From positions 128,001-152,425 of IMG/VR virus record IMGVR_UViG_3300010396_000003: a stretch of 24,425 bases of DNA. One strand, written 5' to 3'. The notes beneath the pieces are model-generated. The model worked only from the letters and a program-made list of their open reading frames with translations, made no database searches and had not been told where the DNA came from. Shown one piece after another: positions 5,783 to 16,790 of this stretch (positions are counted from its first letter, which is position 1; the number at the start of each line of letters is the position of its first letter). The stretch comes from a virus (taxonomy: Duplodnaviria > Heunggongvirae > Uroviricota > Caudoviricetes). Position numbers and translations under genes: made by a program.

Positions 5783-6234
5783 GCAGCATCCTCTGAAATT
5801 TCGTTTAGTGCTCTATGGAAAATATCCGCTATTTCCTGGTTGGATAGATTCAAAATCTTCAAGCGGATAATTGCGGTAGTAAGTGCCTTCTCGGCTTTTT
5901 CCCGTATATTTTCAAGTTGTTTGGTCGTGAGCGACGGCATAGCCATATCTACCATCCGATGCTCTCCAGCGCTCCTAGAGAGTCTTATGGCGGCTATGTG
6001 AATCTTCCTTGCTTCATACTTTACGGTAATCATTGAATACCGGTTAAATATTGTGGAATAAACTTGGTCCTTGCCAAGCTCTAACAGTTCAGCTTGTGAC
6101 CATCCGGCGATAAGTAAGCCGCGATTGTGTTTTTCATCCCACAGGCGCAGCATCTTTGAAGATGGTTCTTGTTTTGTTCGTTCGCACCATTTCCGAAATC
6201 GATCAAATGCTTTCTGTTCTGATTTATTGCTCAT
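5779..6234 (-). CDS. hypothetical protein immediately downstream of the mini-array
   Basis: 151-aa ORF with RBS GGAGGA and ATGA overlap with the next gene. Confidence 0.7.
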   Translation of the reverse strand: MSNKSEQKAFDRFRKWCERTKQEPSSKMLRLWDEKHNRGLLIAGWSQAELLELGKDQVYSTIFNRYSMITVKYEARKIHIAAIRLSRSAGEHRMVDMAMPSLTTKQLENIREKAEKALTTAIIRLKILNLSNQEIADIFHRALNEISEDAA

Positions 6235-6264
6235 GTTTTAGTCCTCCGACTGTAACATTTCGAT

Positions 6265-6499
6265 GTTCCAACACCCATTCTGTAACAACTGATGCCTGTG
6301 CTTGCCGGTATATCTTCATTAGTTTTGCGTTTGCGGCAGGTATTTGCGCTTTTCGGTTCCAACATCCCTTCTGCTGGACTTTGGTCCACTCTCGAAGAAG
6401 TTCCAACACCCTTTCCGTTGGACACAGTTCTGCATACGCGAATGATGGTGGTAAAGGTAGTCGTTCCAACACCCTTTCCGTTGGACACAGTTCTGCAAC
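6265..6499 (-). CRISPR. degenerate mini CRISPR array; repeat GTTGCAGAACTGTGTCCAACGGAAAGGGTGTTGGAAC (37 nt, minus strand)
   Basis: R1 6463-6499 is full length. R2 6400-6437 is identical apart from one extra base near its 5' end. R3 6356-6379 keeps only the 3' 24 nt (hairpin retained). R4 6265-6286 has an internal deletion. Unique spacers are about 25 nt (6438-6462), 20 nt (6380-6399) and 69 nt (6287-6355). The array starts 30 nt after the effector stop codon. Confidence 0.88.
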
Positions 6500-6529: not shown

Positions 6530-8104
6530 TTACGCATGGGCCGCCATGCTCTTTTTTCGCAAACCTTCCGATTGCACATTATTTCCACGGGTTTGCGAAA
6601 AAATCCACCTTACAATATTATGGTCGCCGTCAGACAAATGTCCCTTGGCGCAGCCTACCTGCGAATCGGAACCGGTCAGATCAACGATTTGACCGCCGCA
6701 TACGAAGCAACGGACTTCTTCGTTGTTTTCGATGATTTTACCGTCGCGCTTATGTGCTGCATTGGAAATCGCTATCTTCAGTTTTCCCAATGCGATCCAG
6801 TCGCGCCGCTCAGCCCCTTTGTTTGAGTCTTTCTCTTTTAGTTTTGGAAGATCAATCATCCGCAAAACTACATTAGAATCTGTCACAATCTCTTTGGCCA
6901 CATTCCCATAGACCCAATCGCGCCGGCGATTCCACCAATTGCGTAGCATTCTTTCCTTAACTAGATATTGGATATACTGCCGATTCCAGGTCTGTAGACC
7001 AGTTTTAATATCGACGTGCTCGCCGTTGGATTCCAACTCAAAAAGTAACTGGCGTAGACCACGCGCCCCCAATTTATCAAAAGCACCACCCTGGATACCA
7101 CGTTCGGCCAACCATCCTTGCATTGACTTTTTACACGACTGCACGATCTCTGAACGCAATGCGCGGAGATTTGAAATTGCTTCCGGTGAAACGATGGAGT
7201 TATTCCTTACAAAAGCGCGAGGAAAGAAATATTCTTTGATCCGATGACCATTATAAACAACAGCAAAACGGATGCGATCATCGATTAACCGCCAATTTAG
7301 ATCGACAACCTTAGTCTTATTGTAGACTGGCGGCTCTTTCTGTTCAGTTGCGGGATTCCGTTCCGCCGTGAAGGATAGATAGTACTCCCATGGATCAACA
7401 AACGACTCCCGCCGACCACAAAAGTACACACGCTTATATATTGAATCAACAGGAACCTCGGAATGGAATATGACGTCCAATCCAATTTCGCTTGTTCCAA
7501 GCGAAAACCACGCCGTTCCCTGTCGACTACGACGGTTATCCCTGCTGTTTGTAAAATATGCTGATGCATCCGGTGGAACCATTCGGAAGCGTTTTGAGTT
7601 ACCGATCAAGGCTCTATAAGTCGCCCCGCCGCCAGTGTATCGAACCAGAAGGATGGAGAAATGTGTTATACCGCGCTTCGGTTTTGGAAATCCACCGCCA
7701 TGTTTTAGTCTCTTGAACACAGACTTAAAACGATTCACTATATCGGCATTTCTCTCGCGCTCCATACCGTTGCCGGTGGCAGCAACAGAATTTAAATATT
7801 CTTCCCACTGTTTCCAGTATTCGGTATCACCAAACTTAGGTTTCGGATGTTTTTTCTCCCACTTCTTAATTTCAACGCCGGCCGCTTTACGGTCTGCACG
7901 CAGTTGATTCCACGCCTCGCGTTCCGTAGTCCAGTTAGGATGCGCAGCTAACCAAGCATCGCTGCGTCTCTGCCTTTCATCACAGAGTTGGTTCCAAATC
8001 TGCTGTTCACGCATTGCTTCGTTAAAAATAGGGTCGGGCAATCGAAATGCGTTTGAATGTTCCTTTAAATACGCACGGAATTGTGGGGGATTGTCGATCT
8101 TCAT
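6530..8104 (-). CDS. cas12m: compact type V CRISPR effector, Cas12m (V-U1)-like TnpB derivative, probably nuclease-inactive
   Basis: RuvC-I VVDLNWR (D268; Cas12m-type DLGWR), WED-like IFHSEVPVDSIYKRV...WEYYLSFT, bridge helix RRRDWVYGNVAKEI, RuvC-II VVLRMIDL (R415 at the catalytic Glu position), Zn finger CFVC...CAKGH, RuvC-III DGDHN (D494). Adjacent to the CRISPR repeats. Confidence 0.78.
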   Translation of the reverse strand: MKIDNPPQFRAYLKEHSNAFRLPDPIFNEAMREQQIWNQLCDERQRRSDAWLAAHPNWTTEREAWNQLRADRKAAGVEIKKWEKKHPKPKFGDTEYWKQWEEYLNSVAATGNGMERERNADIVNRFKSVFKRLKHGGGFPKPKRGITHFSILLVRYTGGGATYRALIGNSKRFRMVPPDASAYFTNSRDNRRSRQGTAWFSLGTSEIGLDVIFHSEVPVDSIYKRVYFCGRRESFVDPWEYYLSFTAERNPATEQKEPPVYNKTKVVDLNWRLIDDRIRFAVVYNGHRIKEYFFPRAFVRNNSIVSPEAISNLRALRSEIVQSCKKSMQGWLAERGIQGGAFDKLGARGLRQLLFELESNGEHVDIKTGLQTWNRQYIQYLVKERMLRNWWNRRRDWVYGNVAKEIVTDSNVVLRMIDLPKLKEKDSNKGAERRDWIALGKLKIAISNAAHKRDGKIIENNEEVRCFVCGGQIVDLTGSDSQVGCAKGHLSDGDHNIVRWIFSQTRGNNVQSEGLRKKSMAAHA

Positions 8105-9419: not shown

Positions 9420-10263
9420 TACCCCCTCCGTGTAATTCAAAATCAAAAGCGCTTTGTGTTGGAACTTTAACAATCGTTGCAGTATTCGGTATCTTCGGCT
9501 GCTCCGAAAAATATTCTTTGAGCGTTTCTGGTTTTTGTTCAGAGTAAAGGCGATTCAGTTTTAGCGTCCACAACCCAAGTTGATGTGCTGGCGTTTCCCA
9601 AGTCGACCAGACTTCGCCGCTAAGCGTGTTGCCGTGGATTACGACAGCCGGAATATGGAGCAAGGAAAATTGAATGTATGCCATATGCGCAAAGATAGAA
9701 CGAACATCAGTTGCGGTAATGTGCATACATTTCTGGAAATTCACATCGTGATTTTTAAGTACGGCAGCCGCAGCAATTCCCATGACGCCAGTTCCGCAGG
9801 CTGGTTCTGCGAGTGTGATAAAACCACGATGGTGTATTGGGTTATCGCCTAAGGCTATTTCAGCCATCATCTCAGCCACGTTCCACGGCGTAAACGCTAC
9901 ATCTTTGTCCATCCGAGAGCGGCCGGCGATTTCATCTGTCATATAGATTTCGCCAAGCGTGTCGTGGAAATTAAAGCAATCGCCGCGACACTCTTTATCG
10001 CTATGAATGTGCGGGCTAGTACAAGATAGCGAGTTGACCACACACGCCAGCATTTCGGCGAGTAAAGAATGTTCCTCTTTCGAGTAACGGTTAATTATTT
10101 CCAGATATCGATCCTCTCTCTCTTGCCACGGTTTATCTTTGAACTGGAGAGAATTGGCAAGTGTAATAGCTGTAATTTCAGCCCAATCCAAGAGTGCGTT
10201 GGAATGCCTGTGAGACATTTCGTGAACGATCTTTACGAATCTTTTTTGGTGGGCATCGAACAT
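9226..10263 (-). CDS. N6-adenine DNA methyltransferase-like protein (SAM-binding half; no NPPY/F motif seen)
   Basis: LGEIYM...FTPWNVAEMMA, EPACGTG (motif I), ATDV, VIHGNTLS. Probable start ATG 10263 after GGAG. The C-terminal ~64 codons overlap the next gene. Confidence 0.75.
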   Translation of the reverse strand: MFDAHQKRFVKIVHEMSHRHSNALLDWAEITAITLANSLQFKDKPWQEREDRYLEIINRYSKEEHSLLAEMLACVVNSLSCTSPHIHSDKECRGDCFNFHDTLGEIYMTDEIAGRSRMDKDVAFTPWNVAEMMAEIALGDNPIHHRGFITLAEPACGTGVMGIAAAAVLKNHDVNFQKCMHITATDVRSIFAHMAYIQFSLLHIPAVVIHGNTLSGEVWSTWETPAHQLGLWTLKLNRLYSEQKPETLKEYFSEQPKIPNTATIVKVPTQSAFDFELHGGGNANPYGGQEQQSHGSLRSIGQKIDIQHKRNHLQALSRGPQKRGTKGSRTNQASQKNPRQRKARG

Positions 10264-12854: not shown

Positions 12855-13107
12855 AACTAGCCGTAAAGGCAGTCAGTGGTCGATTGGGCTTACCATCATC
12901 CCGGACTGGACAAACCTTGCTCTGTTGACGATAGAAATGTAACGCGGCGACACCATCGTTAAACTGCATCGCCAAATCCTCATTGTTCGTGACGGTGAGG
13001 ATTCCGATTCCACGTTCATCGGTATCCGGCTGGAAAGAAACGACGAAATTTCCTATTTCTGGGCGGTTAAAACCGCCAGCGTCTACGATTAGGATTGTGT
13101 AGCTCAT
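12817..13107 (-). CDS. hypothetical protein
   Basis: Start taken at ATG 13107 (ATGA overlap with the ligase stop). Contains RDDGKPNRPLTAF. Confidence 0.65.
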   Translation of the reverse strand: MSYTILIVDAGGFNRPEIGNFVVSFQPDTDERGIGILTVTNNEDLAMQFNDGVAALHFYRQQSKVCPVRDDGKPNRPLTAFTASFAKKGTHVVSAI

Positions 13108-14204
13108 GCGGCAATCCCGGCCTTGTAGATAATTTGGTCCACGGTACAATCTTCGGCCAAGACATCAGAACGAATCGACTTCATGCGCGCCTGAACAAGG
13201 TGTCGGCCGGCGCCGCCGTAAAGATAATGCACTTCAATGACTGAGTTGATAGAGACGGTCGGCTTTCCGTTTAGCGAAACGTGTCCCACTTCCACCATCT
13301 TGCCTTGCGCGTCGTAGAGCCCGATCGCGGCGGAATTATGTCCCTTGTCGCCAATTCGAACGACAATTGCCGAAAGAGACTTGATGAATTTGAACTTCTT
13401 ATGGTTGCCACTGTTGCCGGGACGGTATGCAGCGTCGCGTCGCGCAAACACACCTCCCTCGTAGCGATGTTTTTCAAGCGCCGCAAACCCTTCTCGTTTA
13501 GCTTCGGGGGTTTCCCAGGTTGGAATGAGTGTGACGTGGCGACCGCTTGGCGGAATTAACTTTTCCAGTGCCCTGTAGCGTTTTTCGTAGGTAAGAGTGG
13601 AGAGATTCTTGCCGTTAAGACGGAGAAGATTGTAGGCAATGAAAATATTGCCGACGTGCTCGCCGCAGACAAAAAAAGTCTTCGCTTTGATCCTGTCCAG
13701 TTCGTAGACGATTTCCGAGTTTAAGGCTCCGGAGAGCGTTCCGAGTTTGTTGAAGCCAGCATACGTTCCATCGGCTCGCTTTTCGATTTGCCGAAACTGC
13801 CCGTCAGCTTTGAGTTGGAGCCAGTAGTTGGAATTATTCATATACGGTTCAATGCTGGCTACCGGAATCTCGTCCAGATCCTCAATGGGAAAAGGCGTGC
13901 GAAAGTTATCCGTCTTGTTAGAGGGAACAAGCCCGGCGCGCGCCTCAATAACAGTAGCCATTTTGCCCTTCGGCGGCTCATATCCTTCAATGGTTTTACG
14001 ATGAACAAGAGAATCGAAGACTTTCCTGGCTTGTTCGGCCGAAACGCCGCTGATTTTTGTGCCTGTTTGCAGTTTGGAGCCGCGGCGCCCGAATTGGAAG
14101 TTCACCGCAAAACCAGTTGCAACTGGCACAATTTGGATGTGATATTCCTTGTCGCTATTCTTGGCGGAGTTCTGGTAGTAAAGACTAATCGAAGTCGCGC
14201 TCAT
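13104..14204 (-). CDS. WGR-domain ATP-dependent DNA ligase
   Basis: N-terminal WGR domain (SDKEY...VNFQFGRRG...K..EGY). Ligase motifs I LKADG, III CGE, IV YEGGVF..R.AAYRPG and V KKFK, then a C-terminal OB fold (VEVGHV...IEVHYL...R....RSD). Confidence 0.85.
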   Translation of the reverse strand: MSATSISLYYQNSAKNSDKEYHIQIVPVATGFAVNFQFGRRGSKLQTGTKISGVSAEQARKVFDSLVHRKTIEGYEPPKGKMATVIEARAGLVPSNKTDNFRTPFPIEDLDEIPVASIEPYMNNSNYWLQLKADGQFRQIEKRADGTYAGFNKLGTLSGALNSEIVYELDRIKAKTFFVCGEHVGNIFIAYNLLRLNGKNLSTLTYEKRYRALEKLIPPSGRHVTLIPTWETPEAKREGFAALEKHRYEGGVFARRDAAYRPGNSGNHKKFKFIKSLSAIVVRIGDKGHNSAAIGLYDAQGKMVEVGHVSLNGKPTVSINSVIEVHYLYGGAGRHLVQARMKSIRSDVLAEDCTVDQIIYKAGIAA

Positions 14205-14261
14205 TGTTTTTTAATTCTCCTCGATGTTACTTCCACTACATGACATGGATCTCCAAACTGA

Positions 14262-14286
14262 AAGGGGAGTCTTATCGACTCCCCTT
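14262..14286 (-). terminator. intrinsic terminator-like hairpin
   Basis: 10-bp stem AAGGGGAGTC / GACTCCCCTT with a 5-nt loop, followed on the minus strand by a T-rich tail (TTTCAGTTT). Confidence 0.6.
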
Positions 14287-14392
14287 GACCGCAATATTGC
14301 CGGCGTCGCCGGTGCTTACCTTTTAGTTTTGTTTGCCGTAAATGTTGTGTTCGGTGGCATGTTTCTCCTTTCTATTTCGGCGATGGCTCTCG

Positions 14393-14716
14393 CTAACTTC
14401 TATCGCCAAGGTCGTTCAACTCGCTATATTTATCGTTAAGCAGTCCGAAAATGCGTTGTAGTTCGATATTTGCAGGTGTCGGTACGTCCTGCAAAATTTT
14501 CATGACCAAGTCGATATCGACAGCATTTAGGCGTAGGGTTGCGGTTTCAGAATCCACGAGTCGATTGAGAAGTCCCCAAACGATTCCACCGGGCTTTGCC
14601 TGTTCACGACATTTGGCGTCGTAATGTGCGCCAGCCGCCGACATTAGCATGTTGCATTCGGCGCGCGTGAATTCGATCTCTGCCAACGGAATGAGAATAA
14701 CGTTTTGAAGTTTCAT
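14393..14716 (-). CDS. hypothetical protein
   Basis: 107-aa ORF, TAATG-coupled to ku. Confidence 0.7.
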   Translation of the reverse strand: MKLQNVILIPLAEIEFTRAECNMLMSAAGAHYDAKCREQAKPGGIVWGLLNRLVDSETATLRLNAVDIDLVMKILQDVPTPANIELQRIFGLLNDKYSELNDLGDRS

Positions 14717-15555
14717 TACGCCGCAGCCTTTTTCTTCTTGGCTGGCTTTGTGGCTGGAATCGGTGTCGGCTTTACCTCTGGCTTTTTCTTGTTAACAGCC
14801 AACGATGCCCTGAGTGCTTCCATGAGATCGACAGTCGTACTGCTCTGTGTGAACTGAACCGGAGGCGGAGGCGTCACCGATTCATCCATCTTCGACGCGA
14901 TCAGTTGCGTCACCCGCTCTTGAAATTCGTTCGTAAATGTTTTCGGCTGGAAAGCCGAGGACAGGCTTTCGACCAACTGTGCGCCCATCTTGATTTCTCC
15001 CTGACTGAGCGGCGCAGCATTCAGATTGTCAAACTCAGGTACTTCCGCCACCTCGCTTGCGTACCAGAGGAAATGCAGCATGAGACCGTTTCCCTTGGGG
15101 CGAATGAGCACCAGGTTCTCGCGGTTGGATTTCGTCAGTTTGGCAAGTGCCACACGCCCGGTTGCTTCGAGAGCCTTGGCCAACAGGCTATACGGCTTGC
15201 GGCCAGCGTCTTCTGGCAGCATGTAAAACGATTCTGCCAGGTAGAGCGGGTCCACATCTTCGGCAAGCACGCAATCGGTGATTTCCATGACTTTTTCGCT
15301 CGCCGGAGCCATCGAATTGATTTCGTCGTTCGTGAGGATCACGTACTTGCCGCCAGTTTCGTAACCCTTAACCGTATTCTTACTGTCCACCTTCTCATTG
15401 CAATGCGAACAGAAGTACGGTTTGTTCAGTGGCGTGTGACATTTATCGTGAAGACTCTTGAAGTCAATCCGATCGTCGCGAGCCCCGACGTTGAGATAGA
15501 TGGGAATCGACAAAAGACCAAATTGCAGGGCACCCTTCCAGACTTTAGTTGCCAC
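14716..15555 (-). CDS. ku: Ku (non-homologous end-joining DNA-end-binding protein)
   Basis: VWKGALQFGLLSIPIYL, TVKGYE, YLAESFYMLPE, KPYSLL, TVDLMEALRASL and a Lys/Ala-rich tail are hallmarks of prokaryotic Ku. Confidence 0.95.
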   Translation of the reverse strand: MATKVWKGALQFGLLSIPIYLNVGARDDRIDFKSLHDKCHTPLNKPYFCSHCNEKVDSKNTVKGYETGGKYVILTNDEINSMAPASEKVMEITDCVLAEDVDPLYLAESFYMLPEDAGRKPYSLLAKALEATGRVALAKLTKSNRENLVLIRPKGNGLMLHFLWYASEVAEVPEFDNLNAAPLSQGEIKMGAQLVESLSSAFQPKTFTNEFQERVTQLIASKMDESVTPPPPVQFTQSSTTVDLMEALRASLAVNKKKPEVKPTPIPATKPAKKKKAAA

Positions 15556-15573: not shown

Positions 15574-15798
15574 TTAAAATACGATGTGTTGTTGTAAAAC
15601 GGTTTGCCGTTGCCAGTCAACTAAGTAGAAATTGGTATCGGTCAGCCCCCATTTCGAATATTGACGCTCGAAGTATCCTTGTGCGACACCGGCTTCAAGG
15701 AATGAGGATTCCAATTCCGCTATCTCTGAGCCCTTATGGACTGACAAGACAGCGAAATTAAATTTCGGCGGCTTGTTGATTCGCTTTGCCGGGATCAT
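15574..15798 (-). CDS. hypothetical protein
   Basis: Start taken at ATG 15798 after GAGGA. Confidence 0.5.
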   Translation of the reverse strand: MIPAKRINKPPKFNFAVLSVHKGSEIAELESSFLEAGVAQGYFERQYSKWGLTDTNFYLVDWQRQTVLQQHIVF

Positions 15799-16054
15799 TC
15801 GGTTCCTCGATCTGAAATGAAAACGGTTCAACTTTCTTATCACCGTCGAACATCGATACGAAGTTCCTTGCTACACTGGGAAGCACGATACGAGTGTCTT
15901 GTTCGTTGACACCCACACCCTCAATAAGAATAAAACATGGACCAACCAACGCGGTCGTGAGAATACGTCTAACCGCTAAGGCTATCGGGCATTCGCGGCT
16001 GTTGCATGTCTTACCGTTTGCAATGTCTTCGGCTGTGACGGTGATGGTTATCAC
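15758..16054 (-). CDS. phage hypothetical protein (CPIALA motif)
   Basis: ITVTAEDIANG...CPIALA...FD...VEPFSF. RBS GAGGA. Confidence 0.7.
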   Translation of the reverse strand: MITITVTAEDIANGKTCNSRECPIALAVRRILTTALVGPCFILIEGVGVNEQDTRIVLPSVARNFVSMFDGDKKVEPFSFQIEEPNDPGKANQQAAEI

Positions 16055-16179
16055 TTCTGTTTCCTCGCTTTCCGCTGCCGTTTGGCATCATCTTTGGCTT
16101 GGCGTTCTTTTTTGGTCAGATGACCGTCCAGTTCTTCGCGCGGAACGTTGCGCCAGTGGCGTTCAGGATGGCGTTTCAT
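16011..16179 (-). CDS. possible small basic protein directly downstream of the solitary repeat
   Basis: ATG 16179 preceded by AAGGAAAAGGA; MKRHPERHWRNVPREELDGHLTKKN... Its 3' end overlaps the next gene and the exact stop is uncertain. Confidence 0.4.
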
Positions 16180-16216
16180 CGTATTTCCTTTTCCTTTTTA
16201 GTTTGGTTTAATTCTA

Positions 16217-16253
16217 GTTCCAACACCCTTTCTGCTGGACATGGTTCTGTAAC
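16217..16253 (-). CRISPR. solitary CRISPR repeat GTTACAGAACCATGTCCAGCAGAAAGGGTGTTGGAAC
   Basis: 37 nt, 32/37 identical to array repeat R1, same strand, intergenic, hairpin preserved. Confidence 0.88.
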
Positions 16254-16349
16254 GGAGTGACGTAATTTATTTGCGCTATGGTATCTATCCCATAAAATAA
16301 AATGCAGCCTCTTCCGGCGTGATGGCTCTGATAATTTCTTTTTCGTCCG

Positions 16350-16790
16350 TCATGCCGCATTCTCGCGTTGGTGTTCAAAGGCAAGCTGGTTATCGTGCTT
16401 TGTCCAGTGACCCTTCTTGGCGCACTCAGGGCCAAGACCGCGGTGGAGACTGGCTGGAACCGTAAGGGTGCGCCCACAACGAGCGCACTTGCTTTCTTTC
16501 ATGGCGAAAGCCATTTGTGCCTGCTCCGGCTCTCTGGCTACTACATCCAGAGCATAGCGAATGCGAGTCAGTCGCTTTGGTTCATTCGCCTGTTCGAACT
16601 TGTGCCAAAACCTGATCTGGTTATCGTCGGTTAAAAAGCCAACACCTTGAAAACGAAAATTATTTTGACGATCACGCTTCGGCGTGGAGATACCAACTAC
16701 GGCTTTCCCGTTCCAATCGCTAATACGGATTGTGCGATATTGCCCGTCCGAATACACGATGGAGTAGTGACCAAACGCTAGACGCGGCAT
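16350..16790 (-). CDS. DUF6011 domain protein
   Basis: C-terminal CARCGRTLTVPASLHRGLGPECAKK signature. Confidence 0.85.
   Translation of the reverse strand: MPRLAFGHYSIVYSDGQYRTIRISDWNGKAVVGISTPKRDRQNNFRFQGVGFLTDDNQIRFWHKFEQANEPKRLTRIRYALDVVAREPEQAQMAFAMKESKCARCGRTLTVPASLHRGLGPECAKKGHWTKHDNQLAFEHQRENAA

Follow-up and report, generated by a model that had tools for sequence, protein, structure and literature searches.

Results

A repeat inside an operon

The window analysed here (24,425 nt) forms the end of a complete phage record that is 152,425 nt long and carries terminal repeats. It contains, at 16217..16253 on the minus strand, a full 37-nt Cas12m-type repeat (hereafter copy O), recognized by sequence comparison and folding. 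A sigma70-type promoter at 16906-16878 on the same strand, matching TTGACA-17-TATAAT at 12/12 positions, likely drives the operon that holds copy O. The original prediction had placed a perfect promoter about 620 nt upstream, and we measure 625 nt. The promoter is followed by a DUF6011 gene (16350..16790, minus), the first behind it, and by a 22-codon open reading frame read from the sequence (16285..16353, minus), which overlaps the stop of the DUF6011 gene and ends 31 nt ahead of copy O. Because two reading frames separate it from copy O, the promoter is not dedicated to the repeat. Directly behind copy O lie a predicted 20-nt guide (16197..16216, minus), which opens with a −10-like TAGAAT, and then, in the sequence, the Shine-Dalgarno-like AAGGA motifs of the next reading frame (16186..16196, minus). 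The latter (16051..16179, minus) starts 37 nt behind copy O and encodes a basic 42-aa protein with no Pfam family; it is followed on the same strand by a 98-aa frame (15758..16054; phrog_19191, function not assigned) and by a Ku gene (14716-15555). Together with a WGR-ATP-dependent ligase gene, Ku forms an end-joining pair (13104-15555) downstream of copy O, on the same strand. No promoter or terminator was called adjoining copy O. Judged from this arrangement, copy O lies inside an operon and is not a small-RNA gene of its own.

Copy O consists of a 13-nt 5′ part and a 24-nt core (G, 7-bp stem, 7-nt loop, AC). It is identical at 32/37 positions to R1, a repeat 9.7 kb away, and at 30/37 to R2, all on the minus strand. 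The minus-strand RNA folds into a 7-bp stem with a 7-nt loop at −8.4 kcal/mol, a structure identical to that of R1, versus −3.6 and an open centroid for the plus strand. The identity, strand, stem and 3′ end described in the original prediction are thus reproduced, and so is the minus-strand orientation, which is fixed independently by the arrays of related Cas12m loci. The hairpin by itself is ordinary (z −1.0; equal folding in 34/200 shuffles), so that its weight rests on conservation. The substitutions had been read as preserving the structure. The stem is indeed kept, but its two changes are one-sided wobble changes and are not private to copy O: the same variant recurs in R3 and in the genome copy A2, which makes it a variant of the repeat family.

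Contigs from two runs, X1 (a possible source sample) and X2 (a second sample), cross copy O with zero differing letters, and an assembly artefact is rejected as its origin. In a third run, X3, a 251-nt contig of depth 2 stops exactly at the 3′ edge of copy O (window 16216), without a loose end. An A/T-rich X1 contig with 31/37 identity to 16173-16209 missed the seed and was taken as chance. We dropped an integron attC, considered from end motifs that we take to be similar, as the identity of the repeat because the core is only 24 nt.

The effector and its array

A 524-aa Cas12m-like effector is encoded at 6530..8104 (minus), as identified by PADLOC, Foldseek and alignment. PADLOC assigns it to Cas12u1 (E 1e-18), and among the 28 Foldseek matches with E<=0.001 the best four belong to Cas12m structures (E 6e-18 to 9e-16); the structure model (pLDDT 83) was built on database copy P0001, which differs by two residues from the window translation. 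Pfam and PDB sequence searches with the effector found nothing, and the closest relative in a protein search, P0002, is 49% identical. A 13-sequence alignment shows that D268 and D494 of the RuvC site are retained and that the middle Glu is replaced by Arg (triad D-R-D); C466, C469, C485 and H489, aligned as a zinc-finger check, are also retained. In the WED domain, His214 is invariant and the Arg after it has become Ser, residues whose equivalence to His269/Arg270 is drawn from the motif. Taken together, sequence and model identify the 524-aa protein as a Cas12m with one RuvC acid lost, which likely binds DNA without cutting. No cas1 was found in the complete phage record by a search whose control was positive in 7/14 genomes.

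Cas12m orthologs are described as processing pre-crRNA within the repeat, needing no tracrRNA, and binding DNA without cutting (PMC11013384), and Cas12m2 as reading the G-A closure and the final C of the repeat and needing only 17 bp (PMC10442227). An effector-adjacent array of 36-37-nt repeats with a 3′ hairpin, G-A closure and final C is present in this phage, and copy O retains the bases read by Cas12m2. Related Cas12m loci, several of them in Acidobacteria genomes, carry 37-nt repeat arrays of the same layout, with different stems that are still paired, and the stem shows covariation across these systems. The host is presumably an acidobacterium, judging solely by the relatives of the effector. 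It is worth noting that in four related loci (L085, L086, L087, L130) the match of the Cas12m relative covers some 1,780 nt for 520 aa, which implies that the gene carries an insertion of roughly 220 nt; the repeat downstream appears decayed. One Acidobacteria genome (G013 C11 235446-243298; L157, L161) has two Cas12m relatives 5 kb apart, with one or a few repeats behind each.

The array beside the phage effector is a remnant of 3-4 units with spacers of 20-26 nt, all on the minus strand. R1 (6463..6499) starts 30 nt behind the effector stop and precedes a 26-nt spacer. R2 (6400..6436) is identical to R1 at 35/37 positions and ends 20 nt before the core of R3 (6356..6379); R3 is core only, carries the stem variant of copy O, and is a paralog of A2 including the trailer. 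R4 (6265..6288) is degenerate, with a broken stem, and lies 30 nt ahead of the next start codon. R2-R4 (window 6224-6472) and A1-A2 (genome 105368-105676) each fall within a single open frame, the repeat being free of stop codons in all sense frames; the frame of the A copies runs on into a plausible small protein.

Handles scattered through phage genomes

Copy O had been described as solitary, which holds for the window; a scan of the whole contig, however, finds five more copies outside it. This 152-kb phage has ten units at six sites: R1-R4, O, A1 and A2 (genome 105402-105492, plus), B (genome 106107-106130, plus; 14 nt ahead of a start), C (genome 79767-79790, minus; in frame within a gene) and a probable D (genome 3721-3744, minus; in frame at the start of an HTH gene and ending in AT). 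Strict cores number 9 in this genome versus 2 in 60 shuffles combined, and all seven pairs are kept in 9/10 units while loops and 5′ parts drift. Five loose hairpin matches were dropped, since shuffles yield 3-6. The gene holding copy C (L005 3377-3930, genome 79377-79930) matches a profile weakly (87 residues aligned to 93 positions, E 0.024) and no homologs were found for it; its frame appears to continue upstream of its ATG as far as an in-frame TAG, which lies four codons after an ATG close to a promoter.

Scattered copies recur in 3/7 other distinct Cas12m phages scanned whole (range 13 to 68 copies): 68 in G001, 31 in G002, and 7 in the array plus at least 6 outside it in G007. The remainder (G003, G004-G006, G008, G009) have arrays only. 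In this count G004-G006 are one phage, G015 is not counted separately as it repeats the copy pattern of G002, and the whole-record scan left out L031, L041, L054, L138, L149 and the metagenome loci. Three freely scanned stem positions in G001 are paired in 63/64, 64/64 and 64/64 copies, each position showing two or three types of pair, although these pairings are not independent events, the copies being related to one another; two-sided stem changes also occur in G001.

The scattered clusters are mostly intergenic, with some copies in frame within genes, including one inside the cas12 gene of G001. Counted with our own, unvalidated gene caller, clusters are sense to local genes in 5/5 cases in this phage (G000; D left out), 33/38 in G001 and 21/22 in G002; a few copies are antisense or convergent. 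A called start lies within 45 nt of 16/38 clusters in G001 and 10/22 in G002, by the same caller, versus 6% and 9% of random sites; against intergenic controls this proximity is modest (p 0.013 in G001, 0.17 in G002). Lone repeats 17-29 nt before the likely cas12m start (G001 9971-9996, L116 688-711, L125 379-402) suggest, by their position, autoregulation. A rule that copies precede −10 boxes is unsupported (1/10 in this phage, 1/68 and 2/31 in G001 and G002).

Several other arrangements were observed. G001 has two compact arrays of core-only handles (L069 2958-3446 and 11432-12003) with periods of 34-75 nt, four stem variants, and many spacers of just 10-20 nt. Convergent repeat pairs flank one short stretch in G002 (62498-62585) and G001 (55983-56105), where both strands could yield complementary guides. 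A 15-kb metagenome contig (L123 4035-8301) carries an 18-unit array and, on the other strand, five repeats that are lone or paired, and a gene of G003 contains a 27-nt tandem repeat (L022 5558-5800). No close relative of this phage was found by searching viral, metagenome and genome collections with the exact repeat pattern, or by protein and repeat-guide junction searches; 14 loose-pattern matches, examined for array or effector context as far as their flanks, were palindromes.

The predicted guide of copy O and a candidate flagellar promoter

Among 391 genomes of the likely host class, the guide of copy O matches one homologous locus, at 19/20 in G281 and G340; control searches at up to two mismatches gave 3. 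A match at 18/20 is present in G407. The matched site is intergenic, in a divergent promoter between a sigma54 activator gene and flgM-flgK (encoding FlgM and FlgK) of an Acidobacteria lineage, and it overlaps a predicted sigma28 −35 box. The 5′ flank CTT and the first three guide bases form the reverse complement of CTAAAG in a CTAAAG-14-GCCGAT site, which we take to be a sigma28 promoter and which is present in 5 of the host loci compared. A second promoter of this type lies just downstream, facing flgM. Some Cas12m proteins use a TTN PAM, from which the CTT flank differs. The end of the match coincides with the beginning of the phage ribosome site at +21, which is beyond the 17-20-nt guide footprint. 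Thirteen homologous promoters match the guide at 10-19/20, none of them perfectly.

A Markov estimate gives 0.002 expected matches at one mismatch or fewer, from a model that under-predicts the search control about eightfold (0.37 vs 3). In host DNA, TAGAATT occurs about twice as often as its reverse (14 vs 6). With a 17-mer at one mismatch or fewer, 4 loci are found in 401 genomes versus 2 controls, and two of them are unrelated, gene-proximal −10-like sites. The flgM locus emerged after a class-wide search with two guides (S1 and that of copy O), and we estimate the probability that the 19/20 match arose by chance at roughly 3-15%.

S1 gave 1 match at two mismatches versus 14 controls in the 391 genomes; within the lineage of the 19/20 match, guides S1, S2, R3, A1, A2 and B gave control-level matches or none, and guide C gave 10 matches versus 2 controls, with no perfect 17-mer and the best one inside a coding sequence. 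By these searches the 19/20 match appears to be confined to one locus that no other guide corroborates. No notable DNA is shared between the window and 21 relatives of G281, and no flagellin was found in the phage. Within the phages themselves, the guides of G000, G001 and G002 show no PAM consensus for self-targeting; self seed matches do not exceed control in G000 or G001, and reach 10/30 versus 12.5% at a seed of at least 11 in G002, where three of the ten stem from a terminal duplication or from repeat tails. The search of the downstream 20 nt suggested in the original prediction leads to a candidate in the host class and to no phage self target.

Discussion

Based on the above data, we regard copy O as a real feature with a putative function, under selection and part of a recurring arrangement that seems to be undescribed. 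Our leading proposal, to which we assign a probability of about 45%, is that copy O serves as a dispersed crRNA unit which programs Cas12m to repress a promoter. The Cas12m of the phage would cut the operon message at copy O, within the repeat and without a tracrRNA, and the excised handle would carry the next ~20 nt as a guide into the protein. The loaded complex would then sit on a host promoter in a PAM-dependent manner and block it without cutting. Processing in the repeat, PAM-dependent binding and silencing are taken over here from known Cas12m biochemistry. The best candidate target is the divergent flagellar promoter ahead of flgM; that this flgM/sigma54 activator promoter is the target of the guide is a tentative assignment, doubtful at present. 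Placement in the operon would time the guide with operon expression. The original prediction had named a second, dispersed guide locus for the cognate effector. The dispersed unit is favored by the Cas12m-like protein, the retained G-A closure and final C, and the one promoter candidate, but it is not a "second" locus, being one of six sites.

Since excision of the guide would also cut the message, placement within an operon is compatible with an effect in cis, and the two models can both hold. As a purely cis element, the hairpin would let Cas12m bind messages of the phage itself or cleave them, so that operons are split or ribosome sites covered, and the downstream bases would be no more than the leader of the next gene. 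This possibility, which we rate below the guide model and on the unlikely side, suits the copies in other phages better than the guide model does: clusters are sense to genes and lie near starts, copies occur in frame within genes (the cas12 gene of G001; C and D here), lone copies precede likely cas12 starts, self targets were not found, and the "guide" of many copies would be a ribosome site or coding sequence of the phage itself. It is weakened by the modest start proximity against intergenic controls, by the few antisense or convergent copies, and, for copy O, by a ribosome site outside the guide footprint and a 19/20 match that would be left to chance. Targeting of kin is less probable still: a repeat written before the phage's own DNA would make a guide against related phages that keep a PAM there, leaving the carrier immune. 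It would account for copies that lie in frame or close to starts without invoking a host match. The gene of copy C does not exceed its weak profile match in length, which would fit overwriting over insertion, and the low-depth X3 contig ends exactly at the edge of copy O; that contig, without a loose end, may nevertheless be a coverage break, and none of the searches for close relatives revealed an empty site.

That the copies are neutral scars, left by array-genome recombination and tolerated since none of the sense frames of the repeat contains a stop, is improbable. Duplication does happen, as R3 and A2 share repeat and trailer, R4 has decayed, and 4/7 other Cas12m phages lack scattered copies; on the other hand, 9/10 units keep seven pairs while the rest drifts, the strand bias is strong, and the covariation of the stem through two-sided changes in G001 makes a neutral scar unlikely. 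We consider least probable of all, and very improbable, the decoy function raised in the original prediction, in which Racr-like hairpins would load a host Cas12m with useless guides. Solitary repeats are reported to inhibit type V-A systems (PMC10651486), and Acidobacteria genomes contain related Cas12m systems whose repeats share this architecture. Copy O, however, matches six repeats of related soil Cas12m loci at 22-25/37 versus 32/37 for its own R1, such effectors were found in 4/391 genomes of the likely host class, and the cognate effector encoded by the phage would be the first to be titrated.

CRISPR guides usually reside in arrays or in small-RNA genes, whereas here handles are spread through protein-coding operons. 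The dozens of handles in some phages, with clear structural selection, suggest that a Cas12 effector is put to a use not yet described, possibly in the timing of guides, the processing of mRNA or the exclusion of kin. The contribution of this window is a candidate host target, and with a named candidate copy O is a concrete and cheap test case. More speculatively, and with the odds against it, Cas12m might act as a genome-wide regulator through handles written into operons, delivering guides on schedule, and the buried guide of this phage might shut the host flagellar switch (flgM and its divergent activator) in a CRISPR-derived parallel to TldR. If this were true, a soil phage would control the motility of its host, and possibly a phage receptor, by a buried CRISPR guide.

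Comparison with known systems

The type V-M (V-U1) proteins MmCas12m2, GoCas12m and MsCas12m (PMC10442227, PMC11013384) and the phage protein MvCas12m (10.64898/2026.09.14.751636), called by its authors the first phage Cas12m reported, are described with the same fold, size, and repeat with G-A closure and final C; an array behind the effector, the absence of cas1 and the expected binding without cutting are likewise shared. This phage differs by its array remnant of 3-4 units, by six further handles at five other sites and by the D-R-D RuvC site, and the descriptions in PMC10442227 and PMC11013384 concern arrays only. Our literature search, which did not extend to subscription journals and supplements, found no paper describing genome-wide scattered Cas12m repeats, and Rfam gave zero matches in the window.

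A lone repeat on a phage, downstream of a promoter, is shared with the viral SRUs and Racrs of PMC10651486. Those SRUs are presented as not cas-associated and often directly behind a promoter, whereas copy O lies 625 nt into an operon of a genome that carries the cognate cas12m and nine other units, and is thus not solitary in the Racr/SRU sense. The crlRNAs, standalone repeats and phage Cracrs (10.1101/2023.03.03.530964; 10.1101/2024.10.29.618823) have in common with copy O a single repeat and a guide which, for copy O by prediction, is aimed at a promoter, and the copies ahead of cas12m in G001, L116 and L125 are similar to the standalone repeats that precede cas12a. Cracrs, as described there, hijack a host effector, have their own promoter and terminator, and aim at cas or toxin promoters; no such signal was called beside copy O, this phage supplies its own effector, and the candidate target is flagellar. 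A precedent is the prophage fliC-TldR, which represses a sigma28 flagellar promoter (PMC10705468): in both cases, here by prediction, a phage encodes a nuclease-dead protein of the TnpB/Cas12 family whose guide lies over a sigma28 flagellar promoter element. TldR is described as using one long omega-type RNA beside its gene, targeting fliC and being partnered by a phage flagellin (PMC10705468), as opposed to a CRISPR repeat 9.7 kb from the effector, an flgM/activator candidate and no flagellin here. We propose that copy O acts like a crlRNA or a TldR guide while standing apart from Racrs, Cracrs and TldR on the features compared, with Cas12m as its effector.
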